A program made the position numbers and the translations under genes. A DNA stretch of 64,000 bases, from NCBI RefSeq assembly GCF_056746865.1, contig NZ_CM163382.1; one strand, 5' to 3'. Numbering within the stretch: position 1 is the stretch's first letter; the number at the start of each line of letters is the position of its first letter. The notes beneath the pieces were generated by a model that did no database searches, was not told the origin of the DNA, and worked only from the letters and a program-made list of their open reading frames with translations. This document shows positions 57,996 through 58,081 of the stretch, in pieces.

Positions 57996-58057
57996 GCCAT
58001 TGATCGGTCGTTGAAGTAAATATTCACACCTTAGCCGACCTGTTCCCCTCACCCTAA

Positions 58058-58081
58058 CCCTCTCCCCAAAGGGGAGAGGGG
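58058..58081. other. Perfect 10-bp G/C-rich stem-loop between convergent dolP and yraQ
   Basis: ccctctcccc-aaa-ggggagaggg, preceded by the related ttcccctcaccctaaccc; no flanking U-tract on either strand. Confidence 0.6.

Follow-up and report, generated by a model that had tools for sequence, protein, structure and literature searches.

A hairpin between convergent dolP and yraQ matches the BoxC (PIT/TMECO) repeat and is allelic to a REP pair in Escherichia coli

Introduction

The BoxC repeat has been known since the 1990s. A published listing gives it a length of 56 bp and 32–33 copies in E. coli K-12, and counts across the literature run from 22 to 33. Rediscovered by Hoyne and Maher (2000/2002) as the 'potential intrastrand triplex (PIT) element', it was renamed TMECO by Holder et al. 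(2015, NAR 43:10126, PMC4666352), who define it by the pattern 5′-CCCTCNCCC-N3-6-GGGNGAGGG-N3-GGGNGAGGG-3′ and report 3610 TMECOs in 262 proteobacterial genomes. Intergenic change between strains was far greater at TMECO loci than at control loci in that survey, and no transposase was associated with the element. In that paper, which also draws on Hoyne and Maher, the position, distance and orientation of BoxC are given as unrelated to gene function or expression, and PIT elements are cited as having neither promoter nor terminator activity. A 21-mer named HPG1, GGGAGAGGGTTAGGGTGAGGG, was described separately as a switch between G-quadruplex (G4), hairpin and duplex and as 'conserved throughout bacteria' (Kaplan et al. 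2016, NAR 44:9083, PMC5100583). HPG1 is simply BoxC type A approached as a G4 motif; the name BoxC does not occur in the paper.

Other short structured sequences share some of these features. REPs and the BIMEs that they form are, like BoxC, dispersed intergenic palindromic repeats that are transcribed into 3′ UTRs. REP hairpins shield Rho-terminated mRNAs against exonucleases; REPs are also linked to RAYT transposases, and both gyrase and IHF bind them. In sequence they are unrelated to BoxC, which lacks the GCCGGATGCG...CTTATCCGGCCTAC consensus, carries a third block and occurs in ~20–30 copies, whereas REPs number hundreds per genome. Intrinsic terminators resemble BoxC in having a G/C-rich stem-loop of comparable stability downstream of a stop codon, but BoxC has no U-tract and the family has no reported terminator activity. 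Finally, MITE-type repeats such as ERIC/IRU, Correia/NEMIS and RUP likewise consist of short, structured, dispersed sequences whose presence differs from strain to strain. Unlike them, BoxC lacks a cognate transposase, and it lacks terminal inverted repeats accompanied by a target-site duplication.

The element described here differs in nothing essential from BoxC/PIT/TMECO: it shares the three blocks, the TTA second loop (type A), the intergenic position, the multiple copies in E. coli and the hypervariable locus. Its stem is perfect, and K-12 has no BoxC at the same place, between dolP and yraQ.

Identification of the dolP–yraQ hairpin

The window analysed here is a 64,000-nt stretch of contig NZ_CM163382.1 (assembly GCF_056746865.1). 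Its positions 57400–59200 are 100% identical to several complete E. coli genomes, including strain 118UI (NZ_CP032515.1), in which dolP and yraQ are annotated. The dolP CDS (57420..57995, plus strand) and the yraQ CDS (58117..59157, minus strand) converge on a 121-bp spacer, and it was between these two genes that an earlier note on this DNA had placed a very stable G/C stem-loop. The coordinates bear out the placement, and the structure is real. The hairpin CCCTCTCCCC-AAA-GGGGAGAGGG spans 58058–58080 and on inspection has a perfect 10-bp stem, with left arm CCCTCTCCCC at 58058–58067, the 3-nt loop AAA at 58068–58070 and right arm GGGGAGAGGG at 58071–58080; the spacer around it reads ...ctgttcccctcaccctaaccctctccccaaaggggagaggggaccg.... 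This 23-mer has a folding energy of −20.1 kcal/mol, and on both strands the stem is part of the MFE fold as well as the centroid fold. The hairpin lies 63 nt downstream of the stop of dolP and 36 nt downstream of that of yraQ. Directly before it stands CCCCTCACCC-TAA (58045–58057), so that the related half-repeat CCCCTCACCC is indeed present upstream, at 58045–58054, inside the range of 58041–58081 over which the earlier note had described hairpin and half-repeat together. With up to three mismatches tolerated, the hairpin pattern still has a single occurrence in the 64-kb window; it was seen in 0 of 100 dinucleotide shuffles.

On neither strand does a T-run come after the stem (plus, GACCGTCC; minus, TTAGGGTG). 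A terminator scan of the dolP–yraQ intergenic region returned no sites, and a promoter was likewise not found in the spacer. With neither a T-run nor a scan hit, the hairpin is not a canonical intrinsic terminator, as had been argued from the start. Rfam gave best scores of ~15 bits (whalefall-1, mir-3059 and Pab91) against gathering thresholds of 37–88; BoxC is covered by no curated Rfam family.

Membership of a dispersed repeat family, which the earlier note had listed among several possibilities, is what the searches returned. A profile built from the 22 K-12 BoxC members listed by Petrillo et al. (2008, PMC2267715) matched 58041–58088 in nhmmer (E = 1.5e-16, 56 bits), the sole independent match in the 64-kb window. 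The TMECO pattern matches exactly on the minus strand at 58046–58080, once in the window and in 0 of 100 shuffles, and the exact HPG1 21-mer lies on the same strand at 58046–58066, where the 5′ flank is C-rich. To the closest published K-12 members, the window copy (TGTTCCCCTCACCCTAACCCTCTCCCCAAAGGGGAGAGGGGACCGTCCAGTG) shows 92–95% identity. When the motif was searched genome-wide in 5426 complete E. coli genomes, all but one (5425) had the 49-mer 58038–58086, in 2–34 places each with a median of 18. The sequence is clearly not unique. Copies were fetched from the fabI–ycjD spacer of K-12, the gcvP–ygfF spacer of the K-12 derivative DH10B and the recA–recX spacer of strain Combat11I9, and they share ...CCCCTCACCCTAACCCTCTCCCC-NNN-GGGGCGAGGGGAC.... 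In the Holder et al. table (PMC4666352), the fabI–ycjD and gcvP–ygfF copies are TMECO numbers 9–11, and neither yraP nor yraQ appears among those of its 63 loci that were covered here.

The pattern match, the profile E-value, the dispersal of the 49-mer and the HPG1 21-mer together mark the segment 58041–58092, with its C-rich strand on plus, as almost certainly a BoxC copy of the perfect-stem type A, known equally as a PIT element, TMECO type A or HPG1. It is strictly intergenic, with the dolP stop at 57995 on one side and the yraQ stop at 58117 on the other. BoxC itself is an already known repeat, and the window copy is an unannotated instance of it that the earlier note had properly described; the RefSeq record of K-12 carries no repeat features at the loci examined. 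For annotation, the hairpin should be labelled a BoxC/TMECO repeat, neither a terminator nor a novel RNA.

Architecture and structural potential

BoxC is built in the order CCCCTCACCC-TAA-CCCTCTCCCC-AAA-GGGGAGAGGGG, with the hairpin formed by blocks 2 and 3 around the AAA loop. The half-repeat is, to judge from its sequence and the architecture of Holder et al. (2015, PMC4666352), Block 1 (58045..58054, plus strand), an integral third block of the element beside the two that pair. Nearly all of it (58046–58054) is invariant across an alignment of seven copies. On the G-rich strand the order becomes GGGGAGAGGG-TTA-GGGTGAGGGG, whose TTA second loop gives the copy its type A status, and GGGTGAGGGG, the complement of Block 1, would provide the third strand of a potential purine-motif triplex. 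The commonest form of the repeat is 'type A mm' (Holder et al. 2015, PMC4666352). Of the 22 K-12 copies in the profile, 18 have GGGGCGAGGG, with one stem-breaking C (GGGCGAGGG). With its unbroken GGGGAGAGGG, the window copy reads as the rarer, perfect type A variant.

The same mismatch bears on the suggestion, also made in the earlier note, that the palindrome is the binding site of a sequence-specific protein. Dyad symmetry and strongly conserved blocks are all that speak for such a site. The same symmetry-breaking C recurs in those 18 K-12 copies, the conserved unit is a set of three direct or inverted blocks with no simple dyad, and the BoxC, PIT, TMECO and HPG1 papers describe no binding protein (PMC4666352, PMC5100583). 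The suggestion found no support, and we consider it exceedingly improbable.

Several unusual DNA structures are within reach of the G-rich strand. A regular-expression scan for (G3+N1-7)4 located a G-quadruplex motif, GGGGAGAGGGTTAGGGTGAGGGG, on the minus strand at 58045–58067, the only canonical one on either strand of the 64-kb window. Kaplan et al. (2016, PMC5100583) used CD to demonstrate a K+-dependent switch between G4 and hairpin in HPG1 and speculated about transcriptional roles. Holder et al. (2015, PMC4666352) showed by CD and NMR on consensus type A oligonucleotides that in vitro the G-rich strand folds into an intrastrand triplex of very high stability, with a Tm of 82 °C for the perfect type A; when the complementary strand is present, duplex forms instead. 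That paper and the work it cites report that DMS footprinting did not detect the triplex in vivo. Read against the purine-motif rules, the window copy has nine triplets, every one of them allowed. By analogy with these oligonucleotides, the G-rich strand of the window element could fold in vitro as an intrastrand triplex or a G-quadruplex.

Similarity to other copies extends beyond the three blocks. Megablast matches at other loci cover query positions 53–134, or window 58012–58093, at 86–89% identity, and the alignment with the recA–recX and gcvP–ygfF copies delimits a left flank common to extended BoxC copies (58012..58040, plus strand). In gcvP–ygfF the equivalent of this flank is the spacer that separates an inverted type B partner from the type A element. 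Upstream of the left flank in the window stands GATCGGTCGTTGAAG, which may, weakly, represent an eroded type B partner.

Distribution beyond the locus

Copies of the design are found well outside E. coli. A scan of species-representative genomes for CCCTCACCC-N3-CCCTCTCCC returned at least 120 loci among the matches listed. All of the matches listed come from four MAGs, none of them enterobacterial: Archangium (a myxobacterium), Afipia, Ca. Contendobacter and an unclassified bacterium. Nearly all of the matches listed run on into a loop and GGGAGAGGG or GGGCGAGGG, and among them the three-block design comes with genome-specific flanks and subfamilies. The full TMECO pattern is present, again among the matches listed, in 38 of 97 from Archangium and 28 of 30 from the unclassified MAG.

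One side observation concerns the MAG 'bacterium GL140_5' (L006–L033), where ~30 copies of the TMECO pattern among the matches listed fall into two sharply separated subfamilies. Each copy directly follows a further small hairpin (GCGGGCGGAGCCCGC or GTGGGCAAGCCCAC) and leads into an AT-rich tail; from its sequence the whole looks like a larger composite repeat.

On plasmids, a BoxC 55-mer was matched in 809 PLSDB records, including replicons of Rhizobium, Sinorhizobium and Azospirillum; Holder et al. (2015, PMC4666352) give the motif as absent from plasmids. Several of the top PLSDB matches are chromosome-sized records filed as plasmids, and genuine 90–350 kb plasmids of E. coli and Klebsiella are also among the matches.

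Phage genomes are nearly free of BoxC. Two Campylobacter phages of 174 kb, A18a (MG065686.1) and A11a (MG065691.1), each have three places that are ~93% identical to E. coli BoxC. Such matches are unexpected in a Campylobacter phage and could reflect contamination or chimeric assembly.

Exchange of the dolP–yraQ spacer

The locus itself exists in alternative forms. A 191-bp query over the window spacer, at a coverage of at least 80%, found the BoxC allele in 428 of the 5426 genomes, and the equivalent K-12 query found a REP-pair (BIME) allele in 4650 (~86%). The K-12 spacer has no BoxC; it is 113 bp long and holds an inverted REP pair, GCCTGATGCGACGCTTGCCGCGTCTTATCAGGCCTAC ... GTAGGTCAGATAAGGCGTTTACGCCGCATCCGAC, which constitutes a BIME. 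Its architecture agrees with the published PU-BIME lists of Petrillo, judged by short-word matches to typical entries. Conversely, the REP consensus palindrome (GCCKGATGCG...CTTATCMGGCCTAC) is absent from the window spacer. In a third allele class, exemplified by strain WCHEC025943 (L127), the BIME is tandemly duplicated and the spacer reaches ~204 bp. By this tally of alleles, the dolP–yraQ spacer is variable among strains; the BoxC element proper is invariant in four genomes that carry the BoxC allele.

Side-by-side comparison of the sequences shows how much is replaced. The segment that differs from K-12 occupies 57995..58122 and measures 128 bp in the window versus 120 bp in K-12. Divergence sets in at base three of the dolP stop codon (57995) and takes in the yraQ stop and last codon as far as 58122, so that YraQ terminates in ...LLA in the window and in ...LLF in K-12. 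Next to the spacer, the dolP SNPs are reassorted among the spacer alleles when the window is compared with two other genomes (L126 and L128), which points to homologous recombination rather than transposition. Most likely, judging from these alignments, the whole stop-to-stop spacer is swapped by homologous recombination.

Arrival by transposition, with BoxC as a miniature, MITE-like mobile element, would be the obvious alternative for a repeat that is dispersed, multi-copy and polymorphic for presence and absence. Type A and type B copies are often paired in inverted orientation, which resembles terminal inverted repeats, and BoxC-like sequence reaches both the 809 plasmid records and distant phyla. 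At dolP–yraQ, though, the spacer is exchanged whole, with no clean insertion or target-site duplication. At recA–recX a BoxC strain has ~190 bp in place of ~15 bp in K-12, again with no target-site duplication. This replacement fits the observation of Holder et al. (2015, PMC4666352) that intergenic change at TMECO loci far exceeds that at control loci without any associated transposase. The essential absence of BoxC from phages also speaks against a mobile element. We regard transposition as improbable, and insertion of a MITE in particular was rejected: the filled and empty recA–recX sites and the two dolP–yraQ alleles show segment replacement without target-site duplication.

The recA–recX locus deserves a remark of its own. 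Some E. coli carry there a ~190-bp BoxC-containing segment (L004, 1372–1615), and the K-12 spacer is 68 bp (L125, 1140–1209). In the strains that have it, the BoxC segment could alter recA–recX co-transcription.

A second account places the action of BoxC at the level of DNA. In the course of replication or transcription, the G-rich strand would transiently adopt a non-B form (cruciform, G-quadruplex or intrastrand triplex), stall polymerases and raise the local rate of recombination and rearrangement; the coexistence of BoxC and BIME alleles would in that case follow from this activity. The in vitro triplex with its Tm of 82 °C, a polymerase stop in primer extension and the significantly more variable sequence around TMECOs (Holder et al. 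2015, PMC4666352) all lend themselves to this account, as do the G4/hairpin switch seen by CD (Kaplan et al. 2016, PMC5100583), the nine allowed triplets of the window copy, the polymorphism of dolP–yraQ and the recA–recX copy that some strains have and K-12 lacks. However, DMS footprinting showed no triplex in vivo, and PIT elements had no replication phenotype in vivo according to work cited by Holder et al. (PMC4666352). A REP pair, as a repeat, is also subject to turnover, and with it as the alternative allele the variability is not attributable to BoxC specifically; three allele classes in 5426 genomes do not amount to extreme instability. Action at the DNA level seems rather unlikely to us, although it is compatible with a recombinational exchange of the spacer and an RNA-level role for the hairpin.

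For natural isolates of E. coli, the result goes modestly beyond the literature in showing that one convergent spacer holds either BoxC or a REP pair. The two form a ready allelic pair for asking whether unrelated repeats interchange as protectors of mRNA 3′ ends.

RNA 3′ ends and a possible role for the hairpin

Where the RNA ends at other BoxC copies is relevant to that question. BoxC sequence strings were looked up in the K-12 Term-seq data tabulated by Adams et al. (2021, PMC7815308); at dolP–yraQ, these K-12 data report on the BIME allele, not on BoxC. Four curated RNA 3′ ends coincide with distinct BoxC copies: 164636 (plus strand) in hrpB–mrcB, 632098 (plus) in cstA–ybdD, 3781065 (plus), which is the primary 3′ end of lldD, and 4231270 (minus) downstream of yjbD. 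Placed on the K-12 sequence, each lies 3–8 nt beyond the final hairpin G. The four share the C-rich orientation, the one that dolP mRNA would have, and diagnostic strings for the G-rich orientation had no match in the same tables. As a simple tally, this is 4 of the ~22–33 BoxC copies in K-12, with modest read counts. The tables list no 3′ end for dolP.

Rho is active close to these ends. The lldD BoxC end falls inside a region of significant Rho termination, and with a score of 1.3 it does not reach the cutoff of 3 for intrinsic terminators; a further Rho region, 632836 (plus), lies downstream of the BoxC end at 632098. At the K-12 dolP locus, the tables give a Rho termination region at 3297309 (plus; Rho score 8.5, p = 2e-17), ~325 nt downstream of the dolP stop codon, antisense to yraQ. 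From its position, it follows that plus-strand transcription traverses the K-12 dolP–yraQ spacer and is stopped by Rho on the far side of it. More generally, the steady-state 3′ ends of Rho-dependent mRNAs lie just past stable hairpins without a U-tract that block PNPase and RNase II, and REPs make up only a quarter of such protective hairpins (Dar and Sorek 2018, PMC6061677).

By analogy, transcripts in the dolP sense would read through BoxC and be terminated by Rho further downstream, inside the antisense strand of yraQ. The 3′–5′ exonucleases would then trim the RNA back to the BoxC hairpin, which would passively fix and shield the 3′ end of dolP mRNA; in K-12 the REP pair would do the equivalent job. 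The processed end of dolP-sense RNA is predicted, from the four K-12 BoxC ends, at 58084..58089 (plus strand). The evidence comes from the 3′ ends at other BoxC copies, the downstream Rho region of K-12 and the hairpin-protection model, and the same behaviour at the window copy is an extension of these. An RNA-stabilising 3′ structure, also named as a possibility in the earlier note, gains indirect support from the four K-12 ends. We propose only tentatively, at a little under even chances, that BoxC serves as the 3′-end hairpin of Rho-terminated dolP transcripts. Against this role stand the small number of BoxC copies with an RNA end, the missing dolP end in the K-12 tables and the published lack of any link between BoxC position or orientation and gene expression. 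The fuller account, in which BoxC identity and spacer exchange are taken along with a passive 3′-end hairpin, we hold to be quite probably the best explanation of the locus.

The hairpin might instead stop transcription by itself, as a non-canonical, possibly bidirectional and factor-independent terminator for dolP and yraQ. It is very stable, G/C-rich and suitably placed, 63 and 36 nt past the two stops, in a spacer with no other terminator-like site, and the K-12 RNA ends do lie just past other BoxC hairpins. But a U-tract is absent from both strands, the reporter assays of PIT/BoxC cited by Holder et al. (PMC4666352) found no terminator activity, the lldD end scores 1.3 as an intrinsic terminator and sits in a Rho-dependent region, and K-12 transcription past dolP is Rho-terminated ~325 nt downstream. 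Factor-independent termination is thus very improbable. With a protective hairpin, BoxC may mark RNA 3′ ends and yet score negative in terminator assays, and the Term-seq ends at four BoxC hairpins reconcile the absence of terminator activity with a possible effect at the RNA level.

A passive hairpin role leaves the conservation of three blocks across phyla unexplained. The recurrence of the design in many copies per genome in E. coli, Archangium, alphaproteobacteria (Afipia and rhizobial plasmids), Ca. Contendobacter and the unclassified MAG, each with lineage-specific flanks, raises the idea that CCCTCACCC-N3-CCCTCTCCC-loop-GGGAGAGGG is kept or spread by a conserved machinery that recognizes the hairpin, triplex or G4, and that BoxC–BIME swaps are its footprints and not ordinary recombination. 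We think this a long shot.

The K-12 Term-seq ends past four BoxC hairpins, in a single orientation, are a second modest addition to the literature. Neither this nor the two-allele spacer alters the understanding of the BoxC family, and the finding is ordinary save that in this strain BoxC stands at dolP–yraQ in place of the REP pair of most strains.

One further RNA end in the same tables (Adams et al. 2021, PMC7815308) is a separate observation. At ~3049097 (minus strand) of K-12 NC_000913.3, in the gcvH–gcvP spacer, a very strong orphan 3′ end with ~412,000 reads follows a hairpin made of the BoxC-like words GGGAGAGGATCAGGGTGAGG...CCTCACCCTCACTCTC. This hairpin may be a degenerate BoxC pair that acts as a 3′-end or processing site within the operon.
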